Below, piece by piece: positions 34,744-52,951 of a stretch of DNA of 64,000 bases. The stretch lies in the IMG/VR virus record IMGVR_UViG_3300049215_000223, positions 1-64,000 of that record, one strand, 5' to 3'. The stretch comes from a virus. The notes under the pieces are model-generated. The model made no database searches and was not told the DNA's origin. It was given only the letters and a program-made list of their open reading frames with translations. Position numbers and translations under genes: made by a program. Each line of letters starts with the position of its first letter. Positions within the stretch are counted from its first letter, which is position 1.

Positions 34744-34747
34744 AAGT

Positions 34748-35384: not shown

Positions 35385-35634
35385 TTAGGAGAACAAAGAA
35401 TAGGAGAGGAACTTATCTTTGACGTTCATTGGATTGATATTATTAGGACTCATCGGCTTCGATGAGAGTTTTATTTTCCACTGTATCTAGGGCGATGGCA
35501 TAGCTATTTTCAAGGAAGATATCTCGCCATCTAGAATAGATTTGAACTCTAGTAACGCCTGGATGTTTGGCATTGGAGCAGGTAGAACAATAGCCAATGT
35601 TTACTAGGGTATTTTGGCAGAATGGGCAGATCAT
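35385..35634 (-). pseudogene. CxxC/xFS array member 1, frameshifted
   Basis: MICPFC...; tail NINPMNVKDKFLSYSLFS lies in another frame. Confidence 0.7.
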
Positions 35635-35984
35635 GAGAAGGTTAGGATGGTTGCTAGTTTTTGCTCGGCATTTTGGGGAGTGACATTTTGGATGAGATAA
35701 GGGATGTCAAGGATTTTTTTAGCGAAGAACCAGGTTAGTTTTGAGTTATTAGTTTCTGGATTTTTGGTACGAAAGATGATGGTACGATTGCCAGTGAGCC
35801 GCAGATTGAGTTCATACTCGAAGTCTTCCTTTTGGATTTTGAATACAATCTCTTGGAGGTCTTTGTCATGGTAGAATCTAGCTTTGCAAGGTTCGCAATT
35901 CCACCAAGGGGACATGACAGTAGAACAGGCTCCATGGCAGAAGGGACAATAGAATTGGGGCGTTTTGAAGATATTGGGGTCCAT
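35631..35984 (-). CDS. Array member 2
   Basis: CPFC...NVTPQNAEQKLATILTFS. Confidence 0.85.
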   Translation of the reverse strand: MDPNIFKTPQFYCPFCHGACSTVMSPWWNCEPCKARFYHDKDLQEIVFKIQKEDFEYELNLRLTGNRTIIFRTKNPETNNSKLTWFFAKKILDIPYLIQNVTPQNAEQKLATILTFS

Positions 35985-36030
35985 GAGGGAGGGTCCGGGC
36001 GAGATCGGAAATTTATGTCGCGTAAATTTA

Positions 36031-36369
36031 TTAAATAAAGGTTCTTAGTTTATAGAATCTATCTGCCCAATCCTTGGCGTTATTTGGATTGATATTTGGA
36101 AGATAGTCTAAGGAGATGAGATGGTCATCTTTGGATCTAGATTTGTTGAGGATGTAAGAAGCGAAGGTATGTTCTTGGATAGCGAGGCAGAGAAGGATAT
36201 TATATTCTGGAGTTTGGACTTCGAATTGAATTAGCCAAGGTTCGATGCCTTCATTTTCGGATGGATCCTTTTTGAACATATACATTATTCTTGAGACAGG
36301 GCAGGCATCACAGACCCAAATGAGTCTGGTAAGTCTATCTGCTTCACACTGACAATATCTGCATTTCAT
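36031..36369 (-). CDS. Array member 3
   Basis: MKCRYC...PNINPNN...YKLRTFI. Confidence 0.8.
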   Translation of the reverse strand: MKCRYCQCEADRLTRLIWVCDACPVSRIMYMFKKDPSENEGIEPWLIQFEVQTPEYNILLCLAIQEHTFASYILNKSRSKDDHLISLDYLPNINPNNAKDWADRFYKLRTFI

Positions 36370-36692
36370 GAGAATACTGCCAGCTTGAGGAGTTTCAATG
36401 CCAATGCTTCAACTTGTTTAAGATTAATTTCGGCTGGCATTTTGTTAACATTCATTATATGACTTCCAGAATTGGAGTATCTTCCGTCATGAAGAGGTCT
36501 GAAATTATCTTTCAATCCACTTAAACTAGTTGTATTCTTTGCTAGATCGATATCAATTTCATATTATTTATCTTTAAGAATCATATAAAAAGTAATACGA
36601 TTAGGTCTAAACCAAACGCGACATGGGGTGCAGTATTGCGTATCGTGGGTACCAGAGGTAATTTTAGAACAGAATTTGCAAAAAGATATCAT
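36366..36692 (-). pseudogene. Array member 4, in-frame TAA at 36564-36566 (not in track)
   Basis: MISFCKFC...KDK*YEID...KLLKLAVFS. Confidence 0.75.
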
Positions 36693-36958
36693 GAGAATAA
36701 CACGTAGGTTTTAACTTTTTCAATCATATTTTCGGGCGTGAAGTTTGGCAAGGAATCCATCTGGAACAGCAGCTCTCCATTTGTATATATTTCGCACTTT
36801 TGATCTTCAAAGTTAAGATAAACTTCATATTTGCCTGTAGCTAAAACAACGCCATTGAGTTTGTCTTTTTTACCAAACTGATGGACGACCACGACAGAAT
36901 GGTAATCGCAACAATTACTTACTGGAATGGGAGACTGGCAGTAGTAACATTTTTTCAT
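36689..36958 (-). CDS. Array member 5
   Basis: MKKCYYC...PNFTPENMIEKVKTYVLFS. Confidence 0.85.
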   Translation of the reverse strand: MKKCYYCQSPIPVSNCCDYHSVVVVHQFGKKDKLNGVVLATGKYEVYLNFEDQKCEIYTNGELLFQMDSLPNFTPENMIEKVKTYVLFS

Positions 36959-37269
36959 GAAAAGGTAACAATAGTTTTAAGTTTGGCGTACAATTTTTCT
37001 GGGGAGTCTAGTTTGAGTTCTTCATTAAGAACTATTGGCATATCTCCAAAATTTTTGGTTTCTTTATTATAATAAAATATATAAGACTTACCATTGTACA
37101 AGTGTAATCTAAAGGGAGGGATGCTACATACTTGTAATTGATTGGTAGTATGTAGAGAATAATGAGATTGCTTGATGAAGGTGTCAGCATCAAAACTAAT
37201 ATGAGTAGGACAGATAAAATCCTCAAGGGCGGCAGGAGTTAGTTCACGTTGGCATAATGGACATTTCAT
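36955..37269 (-). CDS. Array member 6
   Basis: MKCPLC...KLKTIVTFS. Confidence 0.85.
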   Translation of the reverse strand: MKCPLCQRELTPAALEDFICPTHISFDADTFIKQSHYSLHTTNQLQVCSIPPFRLHLYNGKSYIFYYNKETKNFGDMPIVLNEELKLDSPEKLYAKLKTIVTFS

Positions 37270-37637
37270 AGGAAGATTAGATAGGTTTTGAGTTTGTGCT
37301 TAGCATTCTCGGGAGTGATTGGAAGGATTTCGTTAGCAATCATTAGAACGTCTACCAGTTTAGCACGGACACGTTGACGTTCAGGAGTATATGGAACTTT
37401 ATAAATCAATAGAGTTTGAGTCGTTTCGAAATCAAATTGAAAATGATAAGTTCCATCCTTAGTAGGATCATTTGTATGAAGGGTGAATTCCACATAAACC
37501 AATTTACCATTATTGTATCTTATAAGCGTGGTACAATGTTTAGTACAAGTTTCACAATACCAAGACTCTGGCTGACGATCCTTAAACATAGGTAAAGGAA
37601 CTGTATGATCAGGGGTTTGGCAGAATGGACAATTCAT
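37266..37637 (-). CDS. Array member 7
   Basis: MNCPFC...ITPENAKHKLKTYLIFL. Confidence 0.85.
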   Translation of the reverse strand: MNCPFCQTPDHTVPLPMFKDRQPESWYCETCTKHCTTLIRYNNGKLVYVEFTLHTNDPTKDGTYHFQFDFETTQTLLIYKVPYTPERQRVRAKLVDVLMIANEILPITPENAKHKLKTYLIFL

Positions 37638-37935
37638 GAAAAAGTTAGTAGAGTTGGAAGTTTCTTTTCAAAGTTTTGGGGTGATACTCTAGCTCTAAAA
37701 TGATATTATTAATTTTGACATCAGTACTATTGGTAGTTAGTCTAAAGAAAGGCTGATCAAAATAGAAGAAAGAAGCAGTATAGTTCTTATAGTAAAATGA
37801 ATAAGAAGCTATATCATTCATCACTATAGAGAACCAATAGTTAACATTATACTTGGAACAGTGATATCGTATGTATGCTCCATCATTGGTACTGAACATT
37901 TCAGTAATCATTCTTACACAGAAATAGCACTTCAT
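37634..37935 (-). pseudogene. Array member 8, frameshifted near the C-terminus
   Basis: MKCYFC...EYHP then alternate frame PQNFEKKLPTLLTFS. Confidence 0.75.
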
Positions 37936-38270
37936 GCGAATGTTAACAAGGTTTGGAGTTTTTCTTTTACATTTTGCGGATTGACTCCCTGGATTAGTTC
38001 TGAGATTTCCAAGATAGGAGGCTTATACATGTCGAGCCCATTGAAGAGTCCAGTCTCACTATGTAATGCTCTGACTCTAGTTTTATTTTGGGTAAACAGT
38101 AGTTCTATAATATACATGGTGTTGGGTTTTCTGACAGAGAACGACATAGCCTCTAGTGATTCGGGACCTTCTTTAAACTCGACGCAGCATACGGCACATC
38201 TCCACCAATCACCAGGTTGGATGGTTATTTTAATACAGCGCCCGGAGCAGAAATAGCAATAGTAGTTCAT
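37932..38270 (-). CDS. Array member 9
   Basis: CYFC...VNPQNVKEKLQTLLTFA. Confidence 0.85.
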   Translation of the reverse strand: MNYYCYFCSGRCIKITIQPGDWWRCAVCCVEFKEGPESLEAMSFSVRKPNTMYIIELLFTQNKTRVRALHSETGLFNGLDMYKPPILEISELIQGVNPQNVKEKLQTLLTFA

Positions 38271-38629
38271 GAAAATGTAATTATTGTTTTGATTCTTTTA
38301 GGAGAGATTAATGTGGAAGTAAGATTATCAAACTGTTGCAGTGGCATATCATAAATCTTGCTATACCCCGAGGCGTCTCGTCTTTCCAACCAAACAGCTG
38401 TATAGTCCATTTCGAAAAAAGAAGTTAACGAAATTATTCTATCATCATAGAAATATGCAACTTCAGCATAAGACATTCCTGTTTTAGGACGAAACTCAAA
38501 CCAAGACTCAGGAATTGAATGTTCTCTAAGTTTACTAACTATTTCTTTATTACAGTAGTATATTTGTTTCTGAGCATCTGAATGATGAAGTTGTAATATA
38601 CTTTGACAGATGGGGCACTTATAACTCAT
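38267..38629 (-). CDS. Array member 10
   Basis: CPIC...RIKTIITFS. Confidence 0.85.
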   Translation of the reverse strand: MSYKCPICQSILQLHHSDAQKQIYYCNKEIVSKLREHSIPESWFEFRPKTGMSYAEVAYFYDDRIISLTSFFEMDYTAVWLERRDASGYSKIYDMPLQQFDNLTSTLISPKRIKTIITFS

Positions 38630-38943
38630 AGGAATGTTAGGATAGTTGTGATTTTAGATTCAATATTTTTAGGATTAATATTGGGGGCTGGATTAAAATG
38701 ATGGATGTTCTGACCCTTTTCATCTATCAAATCAGCTTTATCAGCTTCGGGGAAAATATGAAGTATATATTTTTTACCTCTAATAAGAGTCCACAGTTCA
38801 ATAGTATATGCTGTAATTTGTCTATTAACACGAAATGTAGATCGGCAAGACGTACAACCCCAATATATATTATTACCTGACATTTTACCTATTTGGCATC
38901 GGCGCTTACAAAAATAACAAATATAAAATAATGATTCGCTCAT
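38626..38943 (-). CDS. Array member 11
   Basis: CYFC...NINPKNIESKITTILTFL. Confidence 0.85.
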   Translation of the reverse strand: MSESLFYICYFCKRRCQIGKMSGNNIYWGCTSCRSTFRVNRQITAYTIELWTLIRGKKYILHIFPEADKADLIDEKGQNIHHFNPAPNINPKNIESKITTILTFL

Positions 38944-39251
38944 AGGAAAGTTAAGTACAGTTTAATTTTTTCTTCTACATTGCTTGGAGTAATATTGGGT
39001 GGAATAAATGGAAGACGAACAACCGAATCATGAATATATCCGGGACCACATATTTCAGAGCATTTATACTCTAAGTCTATAACAAAAGAATATCCAGGCT
39101 GATTGCCTTTCTTACCAAGTTTACAATCCATGAATACCCATTTAATAACATCCTGTTCAAGTTGGTATTCTACATTGCAATCGAAGCATTTACGACGAAT
39201 AGCGGAGCCGTAAAACTGTGGGAGCATGTTATTGCAATATAAGCAGTTCAT
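38940..39251 (-). CDS. Array member 12
   Basis: MNCLYC...NITPSNVEEKIKLYLTFL. Confidence 0.85.
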   Translation of the reverse strand: MNCLYCNNMLPQFYGSAIRRKCFDCNVEYQLEQDVIKWVFMDCKLGKKGNQPGYSFVIDLEYKCSEICGPGYIHDSVVRLPFIPPNITPSNVEEKIKLYLTFL

Positions 39252-39607
39252 AGGAAATAAGCTAGTGTTTGTAGCTTCCTATCTAAATCTTCTAAATTAA
39301 AAATATCTATTTTCTTAGTTGGCAGTTTAATGAGTGTGGAAGCAACGCCGCCATAGCGCTTTAATATTTGTCTGGAATAGATATGAGCTTCGTTAGGGAA
39401 CGAGGAATTTTGGAAGTAAGTGTATACATTAAAATTTTTAGTAGAGAACCGCAAATAACTTAATTCTGGCTCATCAAAAGCATCCTTGAAATACTGCGAG
39501 TATTCAGTTGCACAATACCCACTACAATATTCATAATACAATCTGCCCTGCAAAGGTGGACGATGGATAGCTCCATTACAATAGGGGCAATGAATAAATG
39601 GTTTCAT
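39248..39607 (-). CDS. Array member 13
   Basis: CPYC...RKLQTLAYFL. Confidence 0.85.
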   Translation of the reverse strand: MKPFIHCPYCNGAIHRPPLQGRLYYEYCSGYCATEYSQYFKDAFDEPELSYLRFSTKNFNVYTYFQNSSFPNEAHIYSRQILKRYGGVASTLIKLPTKKIDIFNLEDLDRKLQTLAYFL

Positions 39608-39972
39608 GAGAACGTTAGATAGACAGGTAATTTAGACTCTACATTTTCTGGTGTAATATCGGGGTGAAAGTCTAAGGTAAAAATAGTTTCGCTGGGTTTC
39701 CTATTATCGAATGGAATCTTAGCGATGGAAAATTTGGGGTGAGTTGGATCTAACTTGCCGTGGTAGAAGTTGACACGGTAATTTGTTTCTTTGAAGCGGC
39801 AGATCAAAGATGTCCATGTATAGCTAGTAACATCGCCAAGAGCCATCGCAATAAATTGTACCCTTACTGAACCATGATAATCGCACTGATAGGCAGGAAA
39901 ATTCATTCTTCCCCCAGGTCTATCGTTGGTTGCAGTTTTACGACACTCAGTTTGGCAATATGTACATTTCAT
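39604..39972 (-). CDS. Array member 14
   Basis: MKCTYC...DITPENVESKLPVYLTFS. Confidence 0.85.
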   Translation of the reverse strand: MKCTYCQTECRKTATNDRPGGRMNFPAYQCDYHGSVRVQFIAMALGDVTSYTWTSLICRFKETNYRVNFYHGKLDPTHPKFSIAKIPFDNRKPSETIFTLDFHPDITPENVESKLPVYLTFS

Positions 39973-39973
39973 G

Positions 39974-40303
39974 TTAGCTAAATATTAGATAGGTTTTAAT
40001 TTTGTTTTCTATATTTTGAGGAGTGATATGATCTGGTATAAAATTTAGTGAGAAGATTAAATCTCCAAACCACATAGACATAAAATCATCTCTTATCCAT
40101 TCTAGGATTTCAAACTTATTACTTACAATATGTAATCTGGCATCGTAATCTTTATTATTAATAGTTCTTCTAAATAGAATTAAATCATAAACATTATCTT
40201 TCTTTCGAAAGTAACAATTACAAGATTGGCACGTCCAATGTTCTTCCTGAGAAATATTCCACTCATACTGTGTACAAGATGTATTACAATAACTACAGAT
40301 CAT
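39974..40303 (-). CDS. Array member 15
   Basis: MICSYC...ITPQNIENKIKTYLIFS. Confidence 0.85.
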   Translation of the reverse strand: MICSYCNTSCTQYEWNISQEEHWTCQSCNCYFRKKDNVYDLILFRRTINNKDYDARLHIVSNKFEILEWIRDDFMSMWFGDLIFSLNFIPDHITPQNIENKIKTYLIFS

Positions 40304-40632
40304 GAGAAGTTGATATACGTTCTTATTTTATCGGCAACATTTTGTGGAGTAACACCAATTAAAATATATGGGAATGACACTACAATAATAAGGGTTCCCT
40401 CGGGATCTTCTGGGTAAGCAACTATTCTAGATTCACCACTATCGTACATTAGTTGTAGACTATAAAGATGATTCTTTACCCGTGCATCTAAACAAACAAC
40501 ATTCACGTCGCCATTATAGTGAATTTGATAATGAGCCATACAATCTTCACAATACCACCAATCATCAACTAAATCAGCCTCATCTCTGTCCATGCAGTTT
40601 TTATTGCAAAAACTGCAAATTGGTGTAGTCAT
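40300..40632 (-). CDS. Array member 16
   Basis: CSFC...VTPQNVADKIRTYINFS. Confidence 0.85.
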   Translation of the reverse strand: MTTPICSFCNKNCMDRDEADLVDDWWYCEDCMAHYQIHYNGDVNVVCLDARVKNHLYSLQLMYDSGESRIVAYPEDPEGTLIIVVSFPYILIGVTPQNVADKIRTYINFS

Positions 40633-41069
40633 GTGAACACCGTCAGATTCATAAGACGGTTGAATAGTTTCTGCGCTTCTGTGTGCATATCATTGTCAGT
40701 TGAGATTGGTATAAATTTGACGCTAATAATAGGGGATACGAGATTTTTAGCCGTCCAGCTTGAAGGGATCATGTACCCATCCATCGTACTGAACGAAGGG
40801 CTAGCTTTCCCTGTAAGTTGATGTATTCTAGTACATTGTTTGCCTTCCATAGCAAACCAATTATTTTTAACTTTGAAAGGCAGATGGTAATTCCAGCACT
40901 GCCACCTTTCACTCTCACGGACCAAGACTCCCATATGAGGAGTGTACGCTACTTTACGGGCTGGGCAATCAATGTTCCAGCAATGCAAGTCCATGCGTTT
41001 AGTTGTTTCATTAAACTTATTTATCTCACTGCGATTATACATTACTGAGAAACAAGATGGACAGTTCAT
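40629..41069 (-). CDS. Array member 17
   Basis: MNCPSC...RLMNLTVFT. Confidence 0.8.
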   Translation of the reverse strand: MNCPSCFSVMYNRSEINKFNETTKRMDLHCWNIDCPARKVAYTPHMGVLVRESERWQCWNYHLPFKVKNNWFAMEGKQCTRIHQLTGKASPSFSTMDGYMIPSSWTAKNLVSPIISVKFIPISTDNDMHTEAQKLFNRLMNLTVFT

Positions 41070-41434
41070 AGGAAGACCTTTAGATTCAAAATTCTTCTAA
41101 CCAAATTCTCATAGAAAGAAATGTCATCGGCAACTGGGTAAAATTGATTATCAAGTGTTATGCATTGATTTGCGCTCTGCCCTGGTTGCCATATTTCTGA
41201 ATAAGACCAACCATCATTATAACTAGTGAAATCATAGCTTTTGCCATCTACTACAATATTAATTTCATAGTCATTAATACGCTGGCTAGGATATTCTGCA
41301 AATCCCCAGAATCTAGTATTCTCTCCATCATCTAGACAGTAAGGGTTTTGACATTCCACTTCATAATACCTAGGACCTCCCTTAGGCTCTCGTTCTTTGA
41401 ATGTAAGTGGAGTTAGGCAGACGGGGCAGTTCAT
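41066..41434 (-). CDS. Array member 18
   Basis: MNCPVC...RILNLKVFL. Confidence 0.8.
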   Translation of the reverse strand: MNCPVCLTPLTFKEREPKGGPRYYEVECQNPYCLDDGENTRFWGFAEYPSQRINDYEINIVVDGKSYDFTSYNDGWSYSEIWQPGQSANQCITLDNQFYPVADDISFYENLVRRILNLKVFL

Positions 41435-41775
41435 AGGAAAGTTAGTATAGTTGATAGTTTATGTACGACGTTGGATGGAGTGACGTTGGGAATGGTAGGC
41501 AACTCAAGCACGACTCTTTGAGTAAATTGTGCATCATCTGCTTGTAAAATTTCAGTGATACGACATTCCTGACCAGGATATAACAATTGAACTGAATATC
41601 TATTGTTACTTATTGATACTGCCAAACAAATCATACTTAGTTCTTGAGTCTTAACATCTACAGTATGACGAACCATAACTGGACATTTATGACATTTCCA
41701 AACCTCAAGAAATTGGGACAGATTGTCTTCTAGTTGTGCCAGCTCGCATGGTTGTTGGCAGAAGTGACAGTTCAC
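41431..41775 (-). CDS. Array member 19
   Basis: MNCHFC...NVTPSNVVHKLSTILTFL. Confidence 0.85.
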   Translation of the reverse strand: MNCHFCQQPCELAQLEDNLSQFLEVWKCHKCPVMVRHTVDVKTQELSMICLAVSISNNRYSVQLLYPGQECRITEILQADDAQFTQRVVLELPTIPNVTPSNVVHKLSTILTFL

Positions 41776-42173
41776 GAGAACACCAGTAGCATTCTTATTT
41801 TAGCCTCAACATTCTGTGGCGTCATCTCAGGAAAGATATCTCCCTTGTCAGCATCAAACTGCCTAATGCACTGTAAGTCCTTATTGACTTTCTCACCAGG
41901 AATACCGGGATCTCCGATATACCAGAGCGAAGCAATCTTCCTATCAGGAGTGCAGCTCCATCGATACGTCTCTCCATTAATTTTGGTATAGAGATTGATT
42001 CCGCTTATATTTCCGCTTTGATAATGTAGATATTCAGATTGACAATGATGACAAAAATAAACGCTCATACCATATCTACTTACTTCTTCTAATGGAGCAT
42101 ATGGCGCGGGGCGTCCGCAGAACTTACATGGTTTAGGTAAATGATGCTTTTGAAACTGATTATCATCACTCAT
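41772..42173 (-). CDS. Array member 20
   Basis: CKFC...MTPQNVEAKIRMLLVFS. Confidence 0.85.
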   Translation of the reverse strand: MSDDNQFQKHHLPKPCKFCGRPAPYAPLEEVSRYGMSVYFCHHCQSEYLHYQSGNISGINLYTKINGETYRWSCTPDRKIASLWYIGDPGIPGEKVNKDLQCIRQFDADKGDIFPEMTPQNVEAKIRMLLVFS

Positions 42174-42556
42174 AGGAATATCATTAATTTTTGAAGTCTG
42201 TCCAATAGATTTTCAGAAGTATCAGCTTTAATCCGAGAGGTTTGTATCACAAACTTCCAGGCATTCATCATGGTCTTGTTTGCATATTGGTCATGAATTT
42301 TATAAACTCTAGATTTTGATTCATTTCCAAAATTATCTATTGCATATGGAAGGACATACATATGCTGGATAGCCGCGCGATTATCCGACTCCACTTCATA
42401 GTGATTGATTTCGTGAACGTTGGTAGCCCCTTGCAACTCAACTTTGGTAGGACAAAAGTATACGTTGACTTTTGCCACCTGACGGTACTGTAATACTTTA
42501 CCGCACAGTGGACAGGTCCTAATTTCAAAATTAATCATAGCTGGGGAGGGCTCCAT
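42170..42556 (-). CDS. Array member 21
   Basis: CPLC...RLQKLMIFL. Confidence 0.8.
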   Translation of the reverse strand: MEPSPAMINFEIRTCPLCGKVLQYRQVAKVNVYFCPTKVELQGATNVHEINHYEVESDNRAAIQHMYVLPYAIDNFGNESKSRVYKIHDQYANKTMMNAWKFVIQTSRIKADTSENLLDRLQKLMIFL

Positions 42557-42593
42557 CCTATATTGTATGTCTTTTGAGGCGCAGAGTCAAGGA

Positions 42594-42965
42594 TCACGAG
42601 AACACTAAGTACATCTTTATGCGGTTAACAACCTCTTGTGTATCGTGCCAAGGCAAATAGAGTGCCTTCTCCAACGTTATAAGATGTTTTTCAAATTGAT
42701 TGGGTCCTTCTAACCCATCTCTCCAGTCTGTAGTGCAAATTCTTGTTTTCTTGGCATCTTCAGTATCCCACATGGTTATGTCATATGGTCCAACTTCTAG
42801 AGAGAATATCTCTGGATTATTATTATATGGATTAACCCAAACAGAAGCATGACTAATGTTAACCATAATTTCCAAATCTTCTATCCAAGTTTGTTTTTTA
42901 GGGCATTGGAGAATTTCTTTATTGAAAGTAACTTCCATTAAATTATTACAAATAGGACAATTCAT
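42594..42965 (-). CDS. Array member 22
   Basis: MNCPIC...RIKMYLVFS. Confidence 0.85.
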   Translation of the reverse strand: MNCPICNNLMEVTFNKEILQCPKKQTWIEDLEIMVNISHASVWVNPYNNNPEIFSLEVGPYDITMWDTEDAKKTRICTTDWRDGLEGPNQFEKHLITLEKALYLPWHDTQEVVNRIKMYLVFS

Positions 42966-43291
42966 GAGAACAACATTAGGGTATCTAGTTTATCTTCCAT
43001 CAAATCAAGATTCTTAAAATCAGTTTTAAGAACTCTGTCAATTTTAACTGCATCGTATAACAAACAATAATCTAATTTATAAACAATAGTGTGTAAATCA
43101 TCATAGTTTATTCTAACGTAATACTTACCCAACATAAATTCTTGTCTAGATATTGTGGTTGGATAGTTATTATAGATTGCTATAAAGCGAGCCATATCAC
43201 TCACAGCACAGCCTGATGCCGTACACCAATACGCAGTGTCATTTAGGGCTTGATGAGACATCAGCTTTGCAGCGCAGAAGGGACAATTCAT
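42962..43291 (-). CDS. Array member 23
   Basis: MNCPFC (ATG overlaps GIY-YIG stop)...KLDTLMLFS. Confidence 0.85.
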   Translation of the reverse strand: MNCPFCAAKLMSHQALNDTAYWCTASGCAVSDMARFIAIYNNYPTTISRQEFMLGKYYVRINYDDLHTIVYKLDYCLLYDAVKIDRVLKTDFKNLDLMEDKLDTLMLFS

Positions 43292-43914
43292 TTCCAAATT
43301 TTGCCAGCGACAATAAGACCAATTGTTCTGTGAGATACTCCGTATTTCTCTCCCAATAATCTGTGAGATTGACCACCATTTTTATAATCTAATCTTATGA
43401 AGTTAACAATTTCATAAGTAAGCTTTGCATTTGGGTTATTTTCACCCTGAACTTTTAGAGCAACTGATTTAGATATCTTTTTGGAAGTTTCGATAGATAT
43501 TGTTTTCCCAAAATTTGCATTATTAGCACCAGAATGTGCGAGAGACATTTTTAATTTAGTATCTTTAGATGCGCATTTGCCACGCTTTATCACAGACATT
43601 TTCTTTTTACTTTCTTCTGAATGTTTGCCGTGTGAACCGCCTTCTTTGATATTATAACCAAATTTATTATTTCTGGTTTCTAAAAGATTTATCCAAAAAA
43701 TCTCAGCAATGTCTACCTCCTCCTGAGTTGTAAAATTTTCGATGGGCACAAACTGAAATTTATCTATTCCATATTTTTGCATTGCTAGATAAATGGGATA
43801 TTTGTATCTAGTTGAATTATACTTGTGCCTGCTCCATCTACCAAATGGATTATCTGTCTGACCGACATATAATTTACCGTTTATAATATTTTTGATTATA
43901 TAAATAAAGTGCAT
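43288..43914 (-). mobile_element. GIY-YIG homing endonuclease with NUMOD3-type repeats
   Basis: FIYIIKNIINGKLYVGQT, GYN, HSEESKKKMS repeats, C-terminal HTH. Confidence 0.88.
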
Positions 43915-44279: not shown

Positions 44280-44351
44280 GTATCAGTATATAACCCACGA
44301 AATCGAGTAATAATGTCGCATCCTTACAATAAAAGAAAAGATAAGGAAAAT

Positions 44352-45125: not shown

Positions 45126-45454
45126 GAAAATGTTATGTAAGTTTTTAACTTTTTAATCAAATGTTTATAATCAGAGAAATCAGGTTCAAAATATGGCAAG
45201 TGCTGACCTTCTGTCTTACTAGTATTTCTAATCTCTAGATCTTTAATAAGCGGAGACCATATTACTATTACTCCATGTGTTAATGGAATTGATACCAATG
45301 ATAATTCATCATATGAGTCCATCAGAGAAATATAGTATATTTTGTGATCTAATTTATTGGTACATTCTTTCTGTAAGCAATTACTTTTTTCGGAACCTAA
45401 AAATGAATTGCACAATGGTTCTTTACAGATTGGACAGTTGATTGGCATTTTCAT
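45122..45454 (-). CDS. Array member 26
   Basis: CPIC...PDFSDYKHLIKKLKTYITFS. Confidence 0.85.
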   Translation of the reverse strand: MKMPINCPICKEPLCNSFLGSEKSNCLQKECTNKLDHKIYYISLMDSYDELSLVSIPLTHGVIVIWSPLIKDLEIRNTSKTEGQHLPYFEPDFSDYKHLIKKLKTYITFS

Positions 45455-45517
45455 GATGAATGGATTCCGTATATTTTTTATACATAAGCATGTATAGATT
45501 CAAGAGAAGTTAAGAAG

Positions 45518-45943
45518 ATGAGTGTAGTTAGAAGTAAATTAGAACATAGAACGATACTAGATTTTAGCAAGGGCAAGTTATCCAAGAATTTAGTTAAGAA
45601 CTCGCTGCGACAAGTGGATGTACTAGATTGTGTGTCAGCTCCTGGAGTTCATAAACTGATTGTCAACAGAATAAAAGTTGGCATGTATATGATTCAATTA
45701 TGGTTTTCAGATAGAGACACTTCTAGAAATAGAAGAAAATTAAAAGAGTATGGGAAGTTCAATATTCATATTTATGAAGAATGCGCTTCTGGAGATTACA
45801 GATTGATTAGATTAAACCGTGATGTTAGATTTAATAACCAGTACTGGGCATCACTTAATAAAAAGTCAGGCTTAATGGCTAACTCTCTCACTGATGCAAT
45901 TGTTCATTGTAATAGACTCAGTCGTTTAAAAGCATTCTTATGA
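45518..45943 (+). CDS. Hypothetical protein, paralog of 50199..50741
   Basis: IKVG..IQL, D.RF...W, ends RLSRLKAFL. Confidence 0.7.
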   Translation: MSVVRSKLEHRTILDFSKGKLSKNLVKNSLRQVDVLDCVSAPGVHKLIVNRIKVGMYMIQLWFSDRDTSRNRRKLKEYGKFNIHIYEECASGDYRLIRLNRDVRFNNQYWASLNKKSGLMANSLTDAIVHCNRLSRLKAFL

Positions 45944-46591
45944 AAACATATTGTATATTTTTATCTTATTGATTAGCTGCTCTTTATTGTGAGTATTGGT
46001 TAGATTAACGGCAGGAACACTCAAGTCCATGAGGTCCTCTAGTTTCTGTGTAAAATCAGCGCGGAATATTCTAGATGTGCCAGTGGTAAAGTCCGTGTTA
46101 ATATGGAAGAAAGAGTTATCTAAGCTGAACCCAGCAAACTCACGAAACATCCAACAATTGTAAGTACCATCATCATTAATATTCAGTGCAAATGAATAGA
46201 AGCAAATCTTCTTCTTCAAATTATCAATAGAAGAAAAAACAGATGGCGTATGACTCGTTGCTGCCATAGTCATATTGCTGCTACTGAGACTAGGAGCTGG
46301 AGTACTTGGTTTTATAAGTCGAGTGTCTATATCGTAATTGCAAACGGGACAAGTTTTGCACACAATAAATGGTTTGGCATAAATAGACCAAAATCGGTCA
46401 CCAAGTTCATAGGTGCCATCAAACTTGAAGTTAGCATATACTCTACCCTTAGGTTTGTCTTTGAGGCGGATGCGTAGTTCGTCTGGACTAACGGACAAGC
46501 TCATTCCCACTAACTCTGCACTACCAACAATCATTGGTCGTTGACAGATCAGACACTTATTACGATAGTTTAATAGCTCTTGTAAATTCAT
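45938..46591 (-). CDS. Array member 27 (long class)
   Basis: LLNYRNKCLIC...KIKIYNMFS. Confidence 0.85.
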   Translation of the reverse strand: MNLQELLNYRNKCLICQRPMIVGSAELVGMSLSVSPDELRIRLKDKPKGRVYANFKFDGTYELGDRFWSIYAKPFIVCKTCPVCNYDIDTRLIKPSTPAPSLSSSNMTMAATSHTPSVFSSIDNLKKKICFYSFALNINDDGTYNCWMFREFAGFSLDNSFFHINTDFTTGTSRIFRADFTQKLEDLMDLSVPAVNLTNTHNKEQLINKIKIYNMFS

Positions 46592-47202
46592 GAAAATATC
46601 AAGTAAGTTTTCATCTTGGTGAGAAAATGTTCCTTGTTCCTAAACCTATATCGTGGTAGCAACGGAAGTACGATTGAACCAATAGAATCAGCTCCCCAAT
46701 TATTTTCTAGACTATAATCTTTTTTACCATATGTCAAGGCGCTTTTATTTTCTTTAAAACTAGATGCCATCACATACCAATTGATATTATCACTACAAGA
46801 TAATACTTCATTCTCAATAGGGAATGAGTAAATAAATTCTTTAGTTAAATCAAATCGTAAACACTCACTTTTAATATAAGTAAGACAGCTGCAAAAAGAT
46901 TCTATCCAAATATCATTCTCTGTTAAAAATTTTAATAATCTGGGCTCATCATTTGTTTTAAACTTATTGGTCTTATGAAATATTTTAAGTTTGAGAGTCT
47001 TTTTGTAAGTAATTCTTAAATTCATTTCTACATACTCTGGTGTTACCAGAGGAGTTATCTCTACATTTTTTTCTTCATCAGATTTAGATCCTCTTCCTGT
47101 AGTAATTGATTTTCTAGTTACTATTTTAATAGTAACCGCTTCGCCACAACTGAAACAGGGATTATTATAAGTAATAAAATCTTTAACAGTAAATTTTTTC
47201 AT
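46588..47202 (-). CDS. Array member 28 (long class)
   Basis: FITYNNPCFSC...KMKTYLIFS. Confidence 0.85.
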   Translation of the reverse strand: MKKFTVKDFITYNNPCFSCGEAVTIKIVTRKSITTGRGSKSDEEKNVEITPLVTPEYVEMNLRITYKKTLKLKIFHKTNKFKTNDEPRLLKFLTENDIWIESFCSCLTYIKSECLRFDLTKEFIYSFPIENEVLSCSDNINWYVMASSFKENKSALTYGKKDYSLENNWGADSIGSIVLPLLPRYRFRNKEHFLTKMKTYLIFS

Positions 47203-48296
47203 TATTCTAATTTACTCTTTGTATGAAGAAACGAAACAATGAACCCATGTAAGTTCCCATTAAGCACATCATCGGCATCCCTAATCTCATGTTCAGTACG
47301 ATGATCTTTAACAAGTTGATAAGGAGAAAGCGTGTATGTACGCATTTGATTACCAAAAGCATTTTCTGATTGTGATAAGAAGTATTTTTCTTTTTCGGAC
47401 ATTTGCTTCTTCAGTTCTATGTCATACAACTTAGCTTTAAGCATTTTTAGAGCCGTTCGTTTGTTAGCGTGAAAGTCTCTTTCCGTTCTAACGAAGATAT
47501 GTATACCACTAGGAAAATGCTTTAATCTAACTGCCGAACTTACCTTGTTCTGGTTTTGACCTCCAGGTCCACCAGAAGTTTGAGCTGTTATTTCCATATC
47601 TTTATCATTTATCTTTATGTCAATTGTGTCTTCAATGTCAGGCACAACAGCCACAGCGGCAAAAGAGGTATGTCGAGCGTCGCCAGAGTTAAAAGGAGAG
47701 TTACGGATCAGTCTATGAACTCCAGCTTCTCCCTTAAAGAAACCATATGCATAAGGACCATCTATCCTTAGAGATACAGAATCGGTACAGATGCCGCCAT
47801 GCTCTTCAGATGGCTTCATGTCTAATATCTCTAGTTTGAATTTATAACTATCTGCATAGCGAGAATACATACGGAGCAGCATAGTAACCCAATTGGCTGC
47901 CTCCAAGCCTCCTGCGCCTGCGCTGATGGTCAAAATGGCAGGGTTGTTATCTGTAGGATCATTCATCATTTCTTGAAACTCAATTCTGGACAGAATCTCT
48001 TCTACCAAACTGATTTCAGGAATCATAGCCTCTGTTTCTTTAGGCATGGTATTCAGGCACTCTTGAAAGAAAGATACCTGCTCTTTGAGGTATGCCAACT
48101 GCTCTAACAAATCGGATAGCTTCTGCCTTTCCTTCATAAGATCGGCAGCTTCTTTAGGATTGTCCCAAAAGTTAGGGTTGTTGACGAGACTATCTATTTG
48201 TTCCAATCGCAATGTGTGCTGATTGACTGGAACCATTTTTTCCAGGGATTTTATTTTGCCCTGGCAGGATTCAATTAATTGTATTATAGTTTTCAT
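47202..48296 (-). CDS. prfB: Peptide chain release factor 2
   Basis: GVHRLIRNSPF (SPF = RF2 specificity), GGPGGQ, RHTSF, QMRTY; no internal frameshift. Confidence 0.92.
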   Translation of the reverse strand: MKTIIQLIESCQGKIKSLEKMVPVNQHTLRLEQIDSLVNNPNFWDNPKEAADLMKERQKLSDLLEQLAYLKEQVSFFQECLNTMPKETEAMIPEISLVEEILSRIEFQEMMNDPTDNNPAILTISAGAGGLEAANWVTMLLRMYSRYADSYKFKLEILDMKPSEEHGGICTDSVSLRIDGPYAYGFFKGEAGVHRLIRNSPFNSGDARHTSFAAVAVVPDIEDTIDIKINDKDMEITAQTSGGPGGQNQNKVSSAVRLKHFPSGIHIFVRTERDFHANKRTALKMLKAKLYDIELKKQMSEKEKYFLSQSENAFGNQMRTYTLSPYQLVKDHRTEHEIRDADDVLNGNLHGFIVSFLHTKSKLE

Positions 48297-48916
48297 GAGA
48301 AGGTAACCAAAGTTTTTATGCGTGTAATTATCTTATCTCTACCCATACCCTCTAGATTCATAATCTTTGTTCTAAGGGGTTCGGTGTTCGCATTATCGCG
48401 GAGGTAAATGTTGGTAGAGTTAAAGATCCAGTCATTCTGAACCCAGAGATTGTCTACCACAAAACTCTCCATATATAGTCGAACACTTCTAATTTTCCAA
48501 ACTGAAGGTTCGTTCGGTACTGAGTCACATCTAAAGTTATCGCTAGAGATACAGTAATTTAAACCACATGATCTACTGGGGCAGTATAGCTCAATGTGTG
48601 GTCCCAAATTTTCGAATGTCTCTTGTACCAAAAAGCAATCTAGTATTTCAGTACTGCGATCTTCTTTATTTAAAAGATCGAACTTAACGAGATTAGTTCT
48701 AATGTCTATTTCTACATTAGCCTCTAACTCAAAGCCCGGCGTCGTATGCTTCATGTGAAATTGGAATTTACCATCTTTTTCCTTGGACTTTATAATAGGA
48801 ACATCATTGGAAGAACGGCTGAAATTGATGAATATTATTTCCAATTTGCCACCACAGAAGACGCAACTTTCTTTTATCTTAAAGAAGTCTTCTATGCTGT
48901 CAAAATAACATTTCAT
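48293..48916 (-). CDS. Array member 29 (long class)
   Basis: FFKIKESCVFC...RIKTLVTFS. Confidence 0.85.
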   Translation of the reverse strand: MKCYFDSIEDFFKIKESCVFCGGKLEIIFINFSRSSNDVPIIKSKEKDGKFQFHMKHTTPGFELEANVEIDIRTNLVKFDLLNKEDRSTEILDCFLVQETFENLGPHIELYCPSRSCGLNYCISSDNFRCDSVPNEPSVWKIRSVRLYMESFVVDNLWVQNDWIFNSTNIYLRDNANTEPLRTKIMNLEGMGRDKIITRIKTLVTFS

Positions 48917-49518
48917 ACAAAAACTAATAGCCTCTTTATCCTACTCAATGCTTCTTGTGGATTTTTGAGATCCATAGGAATCAATGGAATATATTCGTCA
49001 TTAATGGATCCGTCAACTAAGTGTGCAGTGTAATGAGTTTGTTTGGTTGAATAAATACTAGTGATTTCATACAAGATTCCGTTTTCTTCTAAACTAACTC
49101 TTTCTGAGTTTAATAAAACTTTAGTTAATTTCTTATCAGTTAAATCAATACATATTTGCCAAGTACATGAAAATAAGAAACACTGTTCACATTCTGCTCT
49201 TAGACCCTGATATAAAGTCCCAGAGCGGGGAAGAGGGTTAGGATTAGATGCTATAATTCCCTTAACCCTCCCGCCTGTATACATATGCCGTGTAACTTCC
49301 CTACCGTAAACCTCTATTTTAATTTCGTTGGTATGTGGGTCGATAGTTAAAATATCCTCATTGTTTCCGCCAGACAAGTAAAAAGATATTTTTTGTTTGC
49401 CTCCCTGCCACACAAAATCTTCTACCATAAACTCATTGTTAAAAGTAAGCGTGGAGTCACAGAATGGGCAGTATTTGTGATATTCTAGCGCTTGCTTGAT
49501 GTCAGTGAAAGATATCAT
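48913..49518 (-). CDS. Array member 30 (long class)
   Basis: ALEYHKYCPFC...RIKRLLVFV. Confidence 0.85.
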   Translation of the reverse strand: MISFTDIKQALEYHKYCPFCDSTLTFNNEFMVEDFVWQGGKQKISFYLSGGNNEDILTIDPHTNEIKIEVYGREVTRHMYTGGRVKGIIASNPNPLPRSGTLYQGLRAECEQCFLFSCTWQICIDLTDKKLTKVLLNSERVSLEENGILYEITSIYSTKQTHYTAHLVDGSINDEYIPLIPMDLKNPQEALSRIKRLLVFV

Positions 49519-50156
49519 GAGGATGACGAGTCGTAATATTCATCGAACACTTCTTCGGTAAGTCCTGCGTCAATCAAAATAGGACGACCATCTTTGGTTC
49601 CCCAGGAAGATATCCTAGCAATGTCTCCTGCCAGTAAATCAAATTTTTCGCCTAGACGTTTCATTTCTTTATAAACCTCTGAGTCGGCAACCTTATCAAA
49701 TCCTTTAGGCTTTTCTGAGGTGGACTTCAAACCATATCTAAGAGCCTCACCAAAATCATCAAAATCTAGCCCAGTCATCTCTTTGAAATCTTTGGTAGTT
49801 ATCTTGTCTAAATAGTGTGTTTCTAGCCAGGAGTGATTCTTTGCGCAACTGATGATTTCATTGATGAACTTGGACTTCATCTTAGGGTTGCATTCCACTT
49901 CGTTTTGAGCAATTCCTTTGTCATTCTTAGCCATTTTAACAACTGTCTTATCAGGTGTCAAATACACAATTCTGGAGGAGCCAGAGGATAAGTGCTCTAA
50001 GTTTTTCTCAGCATATTCCTTGCGGGCGGTATACGTTTCCAGCCCTTCCAAGTTCTTTAGGATTGTCTTTAGATCCTTAGAATCGGCAGGCAGCTCTTCG
50101 CTTTCGGCTAGCGATTGGAAGAAATGGGCTAATTTGAGCAACTTATTGATATCCAT
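49515..50156 (-). CDS. Atypical protein kinase-like protein
   Basis: LSSGSSRIVY (Gly loop), VVKMAK, QNEVE, DIARISSWG (catalytic loop-like), ILIDAG. Confidence 0.6.
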   Translation of the reverse strand: MDINKLLKLAHFFQSLAESEELPADSKDLKTILKNLEGLETYTARKEYAEKNLEHLSSGSSRIVYLTPDKTVVKMAKNDKGIAQNEVECNPKMKSKFINEIISCAKNHSWLETHYLDKITTKDFKEMTGLDFDDFGEALRYGLKSTSEKPKGFDKVADSEVYKEMKRLGEKFDLLAGDIARISSWGTKDGRPILIDAGLTEEVFDEYYDSSSS

Positions 50157-50198
50157 ACGATAATGCAAACTTAGTAATATTACGTTATATTTTAGAAT

Positions 50199-50741
50199 AT
50201 GAACAATGTATCTAAGGAAGAATACCTAAGACTTATTGAAGAATATGTCAATGACCAATATGGTGATAATGATGGCGATGAAACAACCTTAGACGTTGGA
50301 GCATTTGAAGGGGGATGGATCCCCGCCGATCCACCTGCCAAAGAAAGAATGAAAAATGCTCTAGGTGGGGGCAGTAGCTGCATTGATTTAACCACCGCTA
50401 AGAAAGATAAGATTTCAGACGCACTTTACAAATATCACAATATAAAGGTTGGGGAATTCATTATTAGAATTGAAGAATATCACGGCAGACCTGGTAAAAC
50501 TGGTAAGACTGTTAACCTAACAATGGACGTTTCAGTATGGGAAGAAGTATACAGGACCCCATCTGGTACCCCTTGTAAAATGACATATCGTAAGAATTTC
50601 CACCAAGATAATAAATTTGACAAACGACCTTGGCTAAACTACTTTAGTAATAGTGGAGATGCTCATAACATCCCAGCAGATACAGTAGTTGATGTTATTA
50701 GATGGATGCAAGCTCTTAAGAGAATGACTGCGTTTCTTTAA
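50199..50741 (+). CDS. Hypothetical protein, paralog of 45518..45943
   Basis: IKVGEFII, VWEE, ends LKRMTAFL. Confidence 0.7.
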   Translation: MNNVSKEEYLRLIEEYVNDQYGDNDGDETTLDVGAFEGGWIPADPPAKERMKNALGGGSSCIDLTTAKKDKISDALYKYHNIKVGEFIIRIEEYHGRPGKTGKTVNLTMDVSVWEEVYRTPSGTPCKMTYRKNFHQDNKFDKRPWLNYFSNSGDAHNIPADTVVDVIRWMQALKRMTAFL

Positions 50742-51379
50742 GAGAACAATATTAATTTTTCTAATCTTTTCAAAGTCTCATCATGAGATGTAAATGGAAT
50801 TAAACCTGTATGCAAATGATTAGTTAATTCATCAGTTATATATTTATTTTCTCTCAAAGATTTAACTTTACCATAATTAATAAAAGTTTCCTTGGATTTA
50901 TAGTATGTTACCATGCTGTATACTTTATAGCCACCTAACATTGCTGGCTTAATTAGCCAACATTGTTCAGTGTGAACTGATAATTCTCCAATAGAGCAAT
51001 TTTTATAATCAAAATTCAAAGGGTTAGTTGCATAATTATATCTTTCACAACTATTACAGTGTTTGTAAATCTTATAACCAGCCAAATTTTCATCTAAACT
51101 TTTGAATCGATCCATTAGAAATCGTGGAGATACATCCTCATATCTAATTTCATCGTGAGTAAAAAATTCTATTCTAAGAGAGTTGTCATCGAATCCAAAA
51201 GAATAACCAACCTTGTAGTGCTTCTGCTTTTTGGTCAAACCATCTAACGGAAACAGAATCAACATACGATTATCTTCAAACCTAATTTTTTGTCTTCTGT
51301 TAGAGTGAAATGCAATGTTCAATGGGTTTTGACAGATAGGGCACTCTTTTTTATAATCAAGGAATTCGCGTAGTTTCAT
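50738..51379 (-). CDS. Array member 31 (long class)
   Basis: FLDYKKECPIC...RLEKLILFS. Confidence 0.85.
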   Translation of the reverse strand: MKLREFLDYKKECPICQNPLNIAFHSNRRQKIRFEDNRMLILFPLDGLTKKQKHYKVGYSFGFDDNSLRIEFFTHDEIRYEDVSPRFLMDRFKSLDENLAGYKIYKHCNSCERYNYATNPLNFDYKNCSIGELSVHTEQCWLIKPAMLGGYKVYSMVTYYKSKETFINYGKVKSLRENKYITDELTNHLHTGLIPFTSHDETLKRLEKLILFS

Positions 51380-52206
51380 GGGATAGTCTTACAGCATCTA
51401 AAACCGGTATCATAATAGGAAAATGTGGGTCCATGACCATCTGTTCGGGGGCTGCAACGATTTCTAACGCCATGTGGGTGTCCACCCTTAAATACAGATA
51501 CATAAGGTGTGCCGCCTGATGAAACTGCCCACTCATCGGCATTCCCCGTCATATCATATACTCCATATGGTGAGATACAGTTTGGCATTGAACCGGAAGG
51601 AACAGTTTTATCTAGTTGCTCAAAGGTATGTGTTGCTGGGTCTTGCCAAGGTAAATCTATACGGCAAGCATTGGTATCACGAACATACCCATAAGGGTAT
51701 GGAAGATCACTTGGACCTCGACAAGCTTGCGTCCATTCTGTATCTACACAGAGACGTTTACCTTCTGATTCACAAGTCGCTTTAGCTTGATTCCAAGTAG
51801 TTTGCAATTGAGGTTTACTTCCTAATTTATTTGGATATTCGTATTTATCAATACAAAAATTCATGTGTCTAGTCTGACCTTTACAGACCGTTGGCTTCTG
51901 GAACTCCCCGCACCTCATCGGAGAACTCCACTCTTCACAAGTACCAGCATCGTCTTTCTTTACACAAAGAGGAGCATCTAGCCATTTGAGGCAAATCTCT
52001 TCTAGATTTATGCAATATTCTCCGGTTATTTGAACCATATCAGATGGGCAGGTAGATACTGGTTGCACCACAACATCATCTAATGTCAGATCTATAGGGC
52101 TAGAATCTTTTGTTATTGTCTGTGCTCCAATCCGAGATGAAAATTTCTCCGTAGCACAACTCGTTAAAACCAACAAAACTAAAATACAAATACTACTGCG
52201 TCTCAT
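51376..52206 (-). CDS. FGE/SUMF1 (formylglycine-generating enzyme fold) lipoprotein
   Basis: CPSDMV, FCIDKYEYPN, CESEGKRLC...EWTQACRG, YGVYDMTGNADEW, GFRCC; lipobox LTSC. Confidence 0.88.
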   Translation of the reverse strand: MRRSSICILVLLVLTSCATEKFSSRIGAQTITKDSSPIDLTLDDVVVQPVSTCPSDMVQITGEYCINLEEICLKWLDAPLCVKKDDAGTCEEWSSPMRCGEFQKPTVCKGQTRHMNFCIDKYEYPNKLGSKPQLQTTWNQAKATCESEGKRLCVDTEWTQACRGPSDLPYPYGYVRDTNACRIDLPWQDPATHTFEQLDKTVPSGSMPNCISPYGVYDMTGNADEWAVSSGGTPYVSVFKGGHPHGVRNRCSPRTDGHGPTFSYYDTGFRCCKTIP

Positions 52207-52252
52207 GCAACCTCGCACCCATATAATATAGCCACAGTGGGGCGAAGTGCAA

Positions 52253-52951
52253 CTAAGAAAACAATAACAGCGTCTTGAGTTTATTCAGTAAAAATTCATG
52301 CTCCAGAGGATACCTTAAAAATTTCTCCGAATTCATTTGTATAACTTGCTGCGTCCCCAAGATGTAGGGTGGCATTGGCATATTGTAAGTAATGCTAGTA
52401 GTCTCTGTTGCAAAATCAGTTTTGAAATAATACTTCATTCTCATACCATTGAGAATGAAGTATTCCGATATAAGAGTAATTGGTTTTAGCTGCATCATGT
52501 CCATGTCAAAAATAATAGGTCCTGTAGATAATTGGTATCTGTACTGACAGCTGGAATGATGGGAGCACTGCAATCTTAGATTGATATTGAATCCAGTTTG
52601 TAACTGTTGAGTAAAGTGTCTCTTAACAAAATCATCCGGTGATGTACTGTATTCCGTGACTGTAGAGACTCCACCCGTTTCATAATATTCAGACTTAATA
52701 CTACAGGACGGATCTTTTAAGTTAGCAAGTATAAGAAAATATACCTGTCCTGATGGAGAAAGACGAGATTCCAAACAGCATGGGAAGGCTACCTGATCTC
52801 CCCCTTTAACTAACTTATAAGCACTCATTGGCTTGATAACAGTATAATCATCATCCATATGAATACCATGATTGAATACGATGGATAAAGGATTACCGCA
52901 TAGACAATTAGTCCTGAAGTTGAAGAGCTGCTCAAATGTCGCAAGTTGCAT
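52253..52951 (-). CDS. Array member 32 (long class, first transcribed)
   Basis: LFNFRTNCLCG...KLKTLLLFS. Confidence 0.85.
   Translation of the reverse strand: MQLATFEQLFNFRTNCLCGNPLSIVFNHGIHMDDDYTVIKPMSAYKLVKGGDQVAFPCCLESRLSPSGQVYFLILANLKDPSCSIKSEYYETGGVSTVTEYSTSPDDFVKRHFTQQLQTGFNINLRLQCSHHSSCQYRYQLSTGPIIFDMDMMQLKPITLISEYFILNGMRMKYYFKTDFATETTSITYNMPMPPYILGTQQVIQMNSEKFLRYPLEHEFLLNKLKTLLLFS

Follow-up and report, generated by a model that had tools for sequence, protein, structure and literature searches.

The first 64 kb (hereafter the window) of the 178,722-bp IMG/VR virus record IMGVR_UViG_3300049215_000223 carry a long tandem array of genes for small cysteine-motif proteins on the minus strand. 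Between 35443 and 52951 lie 31 co-oriented open reading frames (ORFs) of one family, 25 of them short (63-146 amino acids, aa) and six long (201-232 aa), which together with a relic of 29 codons that encodes the C-terminal tail alone (36366-36455) amount to about 32 units within 35385-52951. This span of approximately 17 kb corresponds to roughly 4% of a genome estimated at 0.45 Mb. In the array the GC content is 33-38%, compared with 43-53% across the left half of the window, and at 22 junctions in the array the stop and start codons overlap by the 4 bases ATGA. Genes of other kinds interrupt the array, namely a GIY-YIG/NUMOD3 homing endonuclease gene, a release factor 2 (RF2) gene, a gene for a 217-aa protein (phrog_4301), a gene for an FGE-sulfatase-domain lipoprotein and three plus-strand genes. 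All members but one have a CxxC motif inside the first 25 residues, the exception (52253-52951) having CxC, and about half begin with a strict M-x(1-3)-CxxC, while the remainder have N-terminal extensions of up to 15-24 residues. A second Cys pair is present in most members and is C..H in a few, and 29 of the 31 ORFs end in F-x after a basic-hydrophobic pattern; the other two, m07 and m01 (Table 1), are decayed copies in which the canonical tail is still encoded in another frame. Motif and profile searches found no member of the zinc-ribbon family elsewhere in the 178.7-kb record, and the tail motif is likewise confined to the array, except for four endings of the KAF[LW] type. A first-pass annotation of this DNA had described 26 short and 6 long paralogs, nearly all with the strict start, with a second Cys motif and all with a penultimate Phe. 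The total of about 32 stands once the relic is counted in place of one short gene, and the second Cys motif was borne out, while the strict start applies to about half of the members only and the penultimate Phe is missing from the two decayed ORFs.

The members form one family with one predicted fold. BLAST aligns pairs of members over their full length at 23-34% identity, with E values down to 8e-18, an iterated profile joins 20 short members, and a profile termed A1 recovers all 24 of its own members at E<=1e-10; hence the middles, which had seemed barely alignable by eye between constant ends, are specific to each paralog but can be aligned by both methods. The AlphaFold2 model of the short member m18, built on a 24-row alignment, is a single compact domain (predicted local distance difference test score, pLDDT, 90; predicted template modelling score, pTM, 0.81), in which an N-terminal zinc ribbon (C3, C6, C28, C31) is followed by seven antiparallel strands and a helix at residues 103-113 (pLDDT 94-96). 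The assignment to the zinc-ribbon class refers to predicted metal sites: two CxxC (or C..H) knuckles lie about 20-25 residues apart, C3/C6/C28/C31 occur in 86-99% of rows, and in the m18 model both knuckles are flanked by strands. The long genes fall into six ortholog groups that are mutually related over their full length (hhalign probability 89-97%) and whose C-terminal halves match the short family. In the model of the long member m30 (pLDDT 88, pTM 0.81, 20-row alignment), two zinc-knuckle/beta/helix modules succeed each other, so that the long forms are tandem duplications of the short module. The predicted unit of the family is thus an N-terminal C4 (sometimes C3H) zinc ribbon, a beta-meander of six to seven antiparallel strands and a closing C-terminal alpha-helix. 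A search for longer fused forms that might hint at function found none, which is weak evidence.

Conservation was read from 138 representatives aligned to m18, and the statistics of the tail from 147 representatives. In the former set, most information lies in the columns of the four zinc ligands, of Tyr60 and of the last 17 residues, among which T99 is conserved in 74%, P100 in 93%, N102 in 96%, K106 in 95% and F113 in 98%, joined by L107, T109 and L111. Along the strands, conserved hydrophobic positions alternate with variable ones, a pattern from which we infer that one face of the sheet is hydrophobic and conserved, while the other differs between paralogs. The conserved face presumably packs against the C-terminal helix in the predicted fold. 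Isoelectric points of the members range from 4.4 to 9.2 and their net charges from -9 to +8, with a median of 0.

Counted back from the last residue (position 0), a Lys at -8 is found in 140 and a Phe at -1 in 143 of the 147 representatives, which brings these two residues close to the zinc ligands in invariance, and the C-terminus always falls one residue past the Phe. On a helical wheel, positions -11, -7, -4, -3 and 0 form a hydrophobic face, giving an amphipathic pattern, and K(-8), T(-5) and F(-1) would form a conserved stripe that flanks it. The terminal helix of the long forms keeps the motif, while in their structurally equivalent internal helix it is not conserved. Synonymous codons vary at the conserved tail residues (TTC in 18 and TTT in 11 cases for Phe, and four codons for Thr), hence selection on the tail acts at the protein level. 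The ATGA overlap does require an A at the third position of the last codon. That the tail merely reflects a nucleotide signal that serves translational coupling was considered and rejected as the main cause, since synonymous codons vary, the last codons contain no Shine-Dalgarno-like run, and the motif is kept in members and in KAFL proteins that lack the overlap.

The four KAF[LW]-type endings ([LM][KT]AF[LW]) stand on proteins without a zinc ribbon, encoded at 45518-45943 (+), 50199-50741 (+), 60997-61332 (+) and, in genome coordinates, 83268-83750 (-). True family members of the m17 group also end in KVFL or KAFL, including one at 10518-10865 of a related contig (L002, described below). HMM-HMM (hidden Markov model) comparison did not connect the KAFL proteins with the zinc family. 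Between the two KAFL proteins that lie inside the array it detected a weak relationship (hhalign E 0.007 over 85 columns); these two are weak paralogs, so that the four cases are not all independent. A position matrix of the family tail scores the four endings at p 1e-3 to 2e-2, that is, as modest outliers.

The closest comparison comes from L002, a 17.7-kb Logan contig that carries the same block in the same gene order. Read in the reverse direction of the minus-strand array of the window, this order is FGE, a long member, an opposite-strand KAFL protein, the 217-aa gene, two long members, RF2, a long member, the second KAFL protein, about 25 short members, a metallopeptidase and a trypsin-like peptidase. 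The 20 reciprocal-best ortholog pairs analysed between the window and L002 have 44-73% identity, vs 62-80% for the named flanking genes. In all 20 pairs the proportion of non-synonymous differences (pN 0.16-0.38) is well under that of synonymous differences (pS 0.59-0.91, with synonymous sites saturated), and identity in the columns that are variable in the family is 5% for paralogs but 46% for orthologs. Since the variable columns are kept between orthologs, each paralog is an old, constrained gene with a surface of its own. Turnover is concentrated at the distal end of the array (m01-m09), where members have been replaced, are missing, are frameshifted or persist as a relic, and the array evolves by birth and death of copies. 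A diversity-generating or hypervariable cassette was rejected as an explanation, given the 46% identity of the variable columns in orthologs and a pN far below pS.

The same array surrounds a phage RF2 gene in at least five related contigs. Contigs with the block are 17.7 kb, 28.9 kb, 36-51 kb, 204 kb and 480 kb long and stem, besides L002, from IMG/VR (L003-L005 and the 204-kb L006), from one JGI contig and from one 480-kb ENA contig; the phage context was the same in every contig examined, and the three arrays that were counted have about 26-31 genes each. A profile search of 1.84 billion representatives at E<=1e-3 gave 1277 metagenome clusters, nearly all of them full-length proteins of 100-130 aa, while tblastn with a member gave no match in a cultured-phage collection. 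In a clade of uncultured megaphages, whose contigs reach 480 kb, a single and undescribed family of small proteins has undergone an old, lineage-specific expansion.

These results bear unevenly on what the first-pass annotation had proposed from constant ends and variable middles, namely adaptors with hypervariable cores and a tail for docking on one common partner. The profile search and the structure prediction that it had suggested revealed a widespread family with one shared module, and not unrelated folds with a compositional tail. The cores are under purifying selection and have no excess of non-synonymous change, which contradicts hypervariability, and the tail is modelled with confidence as the closing helix of a compact fold instead of a free docking peptide. 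No common docking partner was identified, and nothing connects the phage to Myxococcota, where searches had been proposed.

Comparison with databases did not place the family. In Pfam-A no member reaches a gathering score, the best being 16.3 bits for Ogr_Delta (cut-off 26.3) and 16.6 for PH_met_RdRP (cut-off 27), and no PHROGs model matched (E 0.01 or worse). Foldseek against the PDB gave no clear fold match, with a best E value of 0.16 for a PUR repeat, and the best VIA-align Z scores, 5.4 for the short and 4.9 for the long form, lie in the range that the tool itself states as common or background. The folds considered were LolA/nitrobindin half-barrels, the PUR repeat, KA1 or polo-box-like folds and the helix-grip; look-alikes in the ESM Atlas and a fold search of the Atlas gave nothing above background. 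The same predicted fold and size are found in BFVD among proteins of an "uncultured Caudovirales phage" (A0A6J5RGY3, A0A6J5RSG2 and about 15 more with neighbouring accessions), which are unannotated and have neither a description nor a Pfam family; the best match reaches a TM score of up to 0.85, a root-mean-square deviation of 2.5 over 119 columns and a probability of 1.00. Sharing the fold and occurring in many copies per source, these proteins are almost certainly members of the array family from a related phage. The array as first noticed is real, and its genes belong to a large family of phage-specific proteins that is undescribed and has a predicted fold that seems new.

Long runs of genes are joined by the ATGA overlaps, so that the family genes are probably co-produced through translational coupling. 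Promoter-like sites lie directly before several start codons: a near-consensus TTGACT-17-TACAAT (42557-42593) ends 5 nucleotides (nt) before the ATG of m20, TTGCAC-16-TATATT (52219-52252) ends 6 nt before the GTG of the FGE gene, and TTATAT stands exactly 8 nt before the ATG of three genes that are first in their run, namely m31, m23 and the plus-strand gene at 50199 (52952-52965, 44280-44293 and 50185-50198, respectively). This placement suggests leaderless transcripts. Immediately upstream of the first gene of the array, the minus strand has a strong terminator-like site (53031-53060), in which a T run follows a GC-rich hairpin of 12 bp. The low GC content of the block, its small genes and its promoter-like sites of host sigma-70 type make it probable, as a guess from sequence features, that the array is expressed early.

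Table 1. Family members and embedded genes in the array, with positions in the window
Feature	Position	Strand	Remarks
m01, decayed	35385-35634	-	63-aa ORF 35443-35634, CxxC at residues 3-6; canonical tail 35385-35441 in other frame
m02, short, 117 aa	35631-35984	-	profile E 1e-26
m03, short, 112 aa	36031-36369	-	tail variant TFI; in profile
Tail-only relic, 29-codon mini-ORF	36366-36455	-	C-terminal helix alone; ATGA overlap with m03 start
m04, short, 89 aa	36689-36958	-	in profile
m05, short, 104 aa	36955-37269	-	in profile; second zinc pair C..H
m06, short, 123 aa	37266-37637	-	in profile
m07, frameshifted	37634-37935	-	ORF 37645-37935 ends early; SPQN...TFS tail in other frame, finishing in ATGA overlap; one TAA within profile match
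m08, short, 112 aa	37932-38270	-	BLAST and profile
m09, short, 120 aa	38267-38629	-	in profile
m10, short, 105 aa	38626-38943	-	in profile
m11, short, 103 aa	38940-39251	-	in profile
m12, short, 119 aa	39248-39607	-	in profile
m13, short, 122 aa	39604-39972	-	in profile; second zinc pair C..H
m14, short, 109 aa	39974-40303	-	profile E 4e-29
m15, short, 110 aa	40300-40632	-	in profile
m16, short, 146 aa	40629-41069	-	tail variant VFT; E 6e-16 with profile A1
m17, short, 122 aa	41066-41434	-	tail KVFL; L002 relative ends KAFL
m18, short, 114 aa	41431-41775	-	modelled: zinc ribbon, 7 strands, helix 103-113
m19, short, 133 aa	41772-42173	-	in profile
m20, short, 128 aa	42170-42556	-	in profile; sigma-70-like TTGACT-17-TACAAT 5 nt ahead of ATG
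m21, short, 123 aa	42594-42965	-	in profile
m22, short, 111 aa	42962-43297	-	in profile
m23, short, 121 aa	43914-44279	-	profile A1
m24, short, 129 aa	44736-45125	-	in profile
m25, short, 110 aa	45122-45454	-	profile A1
m26, long two-module, 217 aa	45938-46591	-	HMM-HMM links
m27, long, 204 aa	46588-47202	-	residues 137-204 align to short family (hhalign probability 93%)
m28, long, 207 aa	48293-48916	-	HMM-HMM links
m29, long, 201 aa	48913-49518	-	HMM-HMM links
m30, long, 213 aa	50738-51379	-	modelled: two zinc-knuckle/beta/helix modules, helices 86-98 and 199-212
m31, long, 232 aa	52253-52951	-	first gene of array; strong terminator hairpin 53031-53060 precedes
Homing endonuclease GIY-YIG/NUMOD3 (context)	43288-43914	-	inserted between two family genes
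KAFL protein without zinc ribbon	45518-45943	+	ends ..LKAFL; synteny conserved in relatives
Phage release factor 2 (context)	47202-48296	-	inside array in every relative seen
Conserved 217-aa protein, phrog_4301 (context)	49515-50168	-	embedded in array
Protein without zinc ribbon	50199-50741	+	ends ..MTAFL; weak paralog of 45518-45943; last 15 residues identical in L002

CheckV rates the 178.7-kb record as 42% complete, which puts the phage genome at about 0.4-0.5 Mb. The rest of the record encodes ribonucleotide reductase, PhoH, a DnaB-like helicase and a UvsW-like helicase, typical jumbo-phage genes, and very large structural-type ORFs occupy 108-178 kb and are open in the standard code. 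The array adjoins nucleotide-metabolism genes and is far from the large structural genes. Positions 1-34000 of the window have many short ORFs and a higher GC content (43-53%), and reading through TGA opens many overlapping frames there, apparently as an effect of composition. An alternative genetic code was rejected, since read-through of TGA, TAG or TAA lengthens the frames at 1-34 kb only as GC content predicts and the structural genes are open.

Among the genes embedded in the array, that for RF2 (PCRF and RF-1 domains) consists of one ORF and lacks the programmed frameshift usual for this gene. Its nearest matches in GTDB have only 39% identity and come from unrelated metagenome-assembled genomes, so that they point to no host. 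The codon read by RF2, TGA, ends 22 of the 31 family genes. The gene for the 217-aa protein is the most conserved of the block (80% identity to L002), and phrog_4301 homologs occur in the Xanthomonas phages XacN1 (ORF170) and Xoo-sp13 and in Alishewanella phages. By eye, this protein has kinase-like glycine-loop, VxK and DxG motifs, and no Pfam or PDB sequence match was found. A role as dedicated partner of the family was rejected, as phage XacN1 has the 217-aa gene but no family member. The homing endonuclease gene is missing at this site in L002, and similar ones are found elsewhere in related arrays (L003 13097-13810 and 15111-15965). Secreted-type enzymes flank the array in all relatives (33967-35383 on the plus and 51376-52218 on the minus strand of the window), namely a trypsin-like peptidase, an HExxH zinc metallopeptidase-like protein and the FGE-sulfatase-domain lipoprotein.

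The reading that we place first, and to which we would give about an even chance, combines a structural C-terminal helix with independent specific binders and a possible shared contact. The variable sheet face of each paralog would bind a different host or phage target, in takeover of the host or in counter-defence, and the binders would be made early, from sigma-70-like and possibly leaderless promoters. The C-terminal helix would primarily be the structural keel of the fold, and the near-invariant K/T/F stripe, ending one residue past the Phe, probably also contacts something common to all members. The wide span of isoelectric points argues against a uniform DNA-binding or DNA-mimic role. 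Several points speak against this reading. Promoter-like matches number 84, vs 72 +/- 9 in shuffled sequence, and are thus not enriched; both models were built on shallow alignments of 24 and 20 rows; and the packing of the helix on the sheet is deduced from pLDDT, pTM and the amphipathic pattern. Translation that is coupled and yields equal amounts would fit subunits of one assembly as well, and the very strong conservation of the tail, together with its presence on proteins without the fold, fits a docking tag better than a purely structural helix.

The motif is conserved far beyond the apparent needs of the fold, so that a shared docking role is possible. If this role were the main one, the family would be an adaptor library, in which the C-terminal motif is the address by which all members, and the KAF[LW] proteins with them, dock on a single hub (a host protease, RNA polymerase or a clamp-like ring, for example), while the variable face brings the targets; this we consider a possible but doubtful explanation. 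It would account for a Lys and a Phe kept in 95-97% of the representatives, for the fixed end one residue past the Phe, for the unconserved equivalent helix inside the long forms, and for KAF[LW] endings shared by true members and four proteins in which no similarity to the family was detected. The series hydrophobic(-7), hydrophobic(-4), Phe(-1) may moreover resemble C-terminal clamp-binding or PIP-like peptides. On the other hand, the tail is modelled as an integral helix and not as a flexible peptide, the KAF[LW] endings are modest outliers by the family matrix, no sliding-clamp gene was found in the 178.7-kb, 42%-complete record, and the ATGA overlap, which penalises any shift of the stop codon, could alone fix the C-terminus. 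In its furthest form, in which K-[IL]-x-T-x-L-x-F-x-COOH and its KAF[LW] variant are a portable address tag that brings more than 30 different binder modules, along with several unrelated proteins, to a single hub machine of the host or the phage, the proposal is likewise a tentative one.

A role as nucleic-acid-binding regulators or structural DNA-binding proteins, as proposed for phage G (PMC7824862), has this precedent on its side, and zinc ribbons are common in transcription factors; weak matches to the Ogr_Delta, Elf1 and RPB9 ribbons and the PUR repeat as best Foldseek PDB row (E 0.16) point the same way. We nonetheless regard it as improbable, because all matches are below curated cut-offs and span the zinc knuckles only, net charges of -9 to +8 around a median of 0 are unlike those of a uniformly basic DNA binder, and the proteins are without a helix-turn-helix or other DNA-reading element. 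Still less probable is that the proteins are virion cargo, packed in the head by means of the tail as a capsid-targeting helix and injected with the DNA. Paralogous internal head proteins are indeed found in giant phages, a shared terminal amphipathic helix directs cargo to encapsulins and microcompartments, and secreted-type proteases flank the array; but the array lies beside nucleotide-metabolism genes and distant from the structural genes at 108-178 kb, its promoters resemble the host sigma-70 type, and zinc-stabilised folded domains would be poor candidates for passage through a tail. That the members are subunits of one hetero-oligomeric assembly, joined via their conserved ends, seems very improbable: near-equal amounts would be expected from translational coupling and both ends of the proteins are conserved, but copy number and membership vary between related phages and, the zinc ribbon apart, no surface is conserved enough to receive the tail.

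Expanded families of unknown function occupy large parts of giant-phage genomes, and the array is a clean and large example of this. The predicted fold is confident and has no clear solved relative, and the family, which is absent from Pfam and PHROGs, deserves a database entry. The array resembles a naturally occurring library of binders that are small, stable and held together by zinc; their targets would reveal the host processes that a megaphage must control, and the zinc-ribbon scaffold could serve for engineered binders. The near-invariant C-terminal motif, common to otherwise unrelated proteins, offers a concrete case for the question of whether phages use terminal address tags; should the tag reading be true, this megaphage clade would run a programmable zinc-ribbon adaptor system for which no counterpart has been described among bacterial viruses.

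The first-pass annotation had known of no described family of this size and design, which holds insofar as the family is outside Pfam and PHROGs, but not with respect to Bacillus phage G, in which an expansion of about 35 copies of a zinc-ribbon protein of unknown function has been described and a role as nucleic-acid-binding regulators or structural DNA-binding proteins was proposed (Iyer et al., 2021; PMC7824862). In phage G, gp447-gp474 (354-371 kb) form a 28-gene tandem array, all unannotated in the record, of proteins of approximately 180-220 aa with a central CxxC...CxxxC (Cys at about 110-150) and a conserved C-terminal W-K-E-N-D-R-Y-L helix. Both systems thus have co-oriented tandem paralogs (about 28-35 in phage G) in a giant phage of about 0.5 Mb, and in both the proteins combine a zinc ribbon with a helical region that is conserved towards the C-terminus. 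In contrast to the central ribbon of phage G, that of the array family is N-terminal, and the C-terminal motif of phage G is a different one and not at the exact end. The array-family profile gave E values of 0.018-0.06 in phage G, the best match covering positions 2-79 only, and hhalign between the two families aligned 13-27 columns only, at the zinc knuckles (CPxC...C). The phage G expansion is the nearest described precedent, as an analogue for which homology beyond the ribbon is not demonstrated. The regulators of the Ogr/Delta type (PF04606) and others with an N-terminal zinc ribbon are likewise small phage proteins with a near-immediate CxxC and a second Cys pair about 22 residues on, but only one member matches, below threshold (E 0.009, 16 bits vs a cut-off of 26), and Ogr/Delta has neither the beta-meander nor the C-terminal helix motif. 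A third likeness is not one of sequence or fold, and the virus of the array is bacterial, and it concerns the design principle only: viral adaptor families such as the poxvirus ankyrin/PRANC proteins also combine many paralogs and a variable binding surface with one constant C-terminal docking element.

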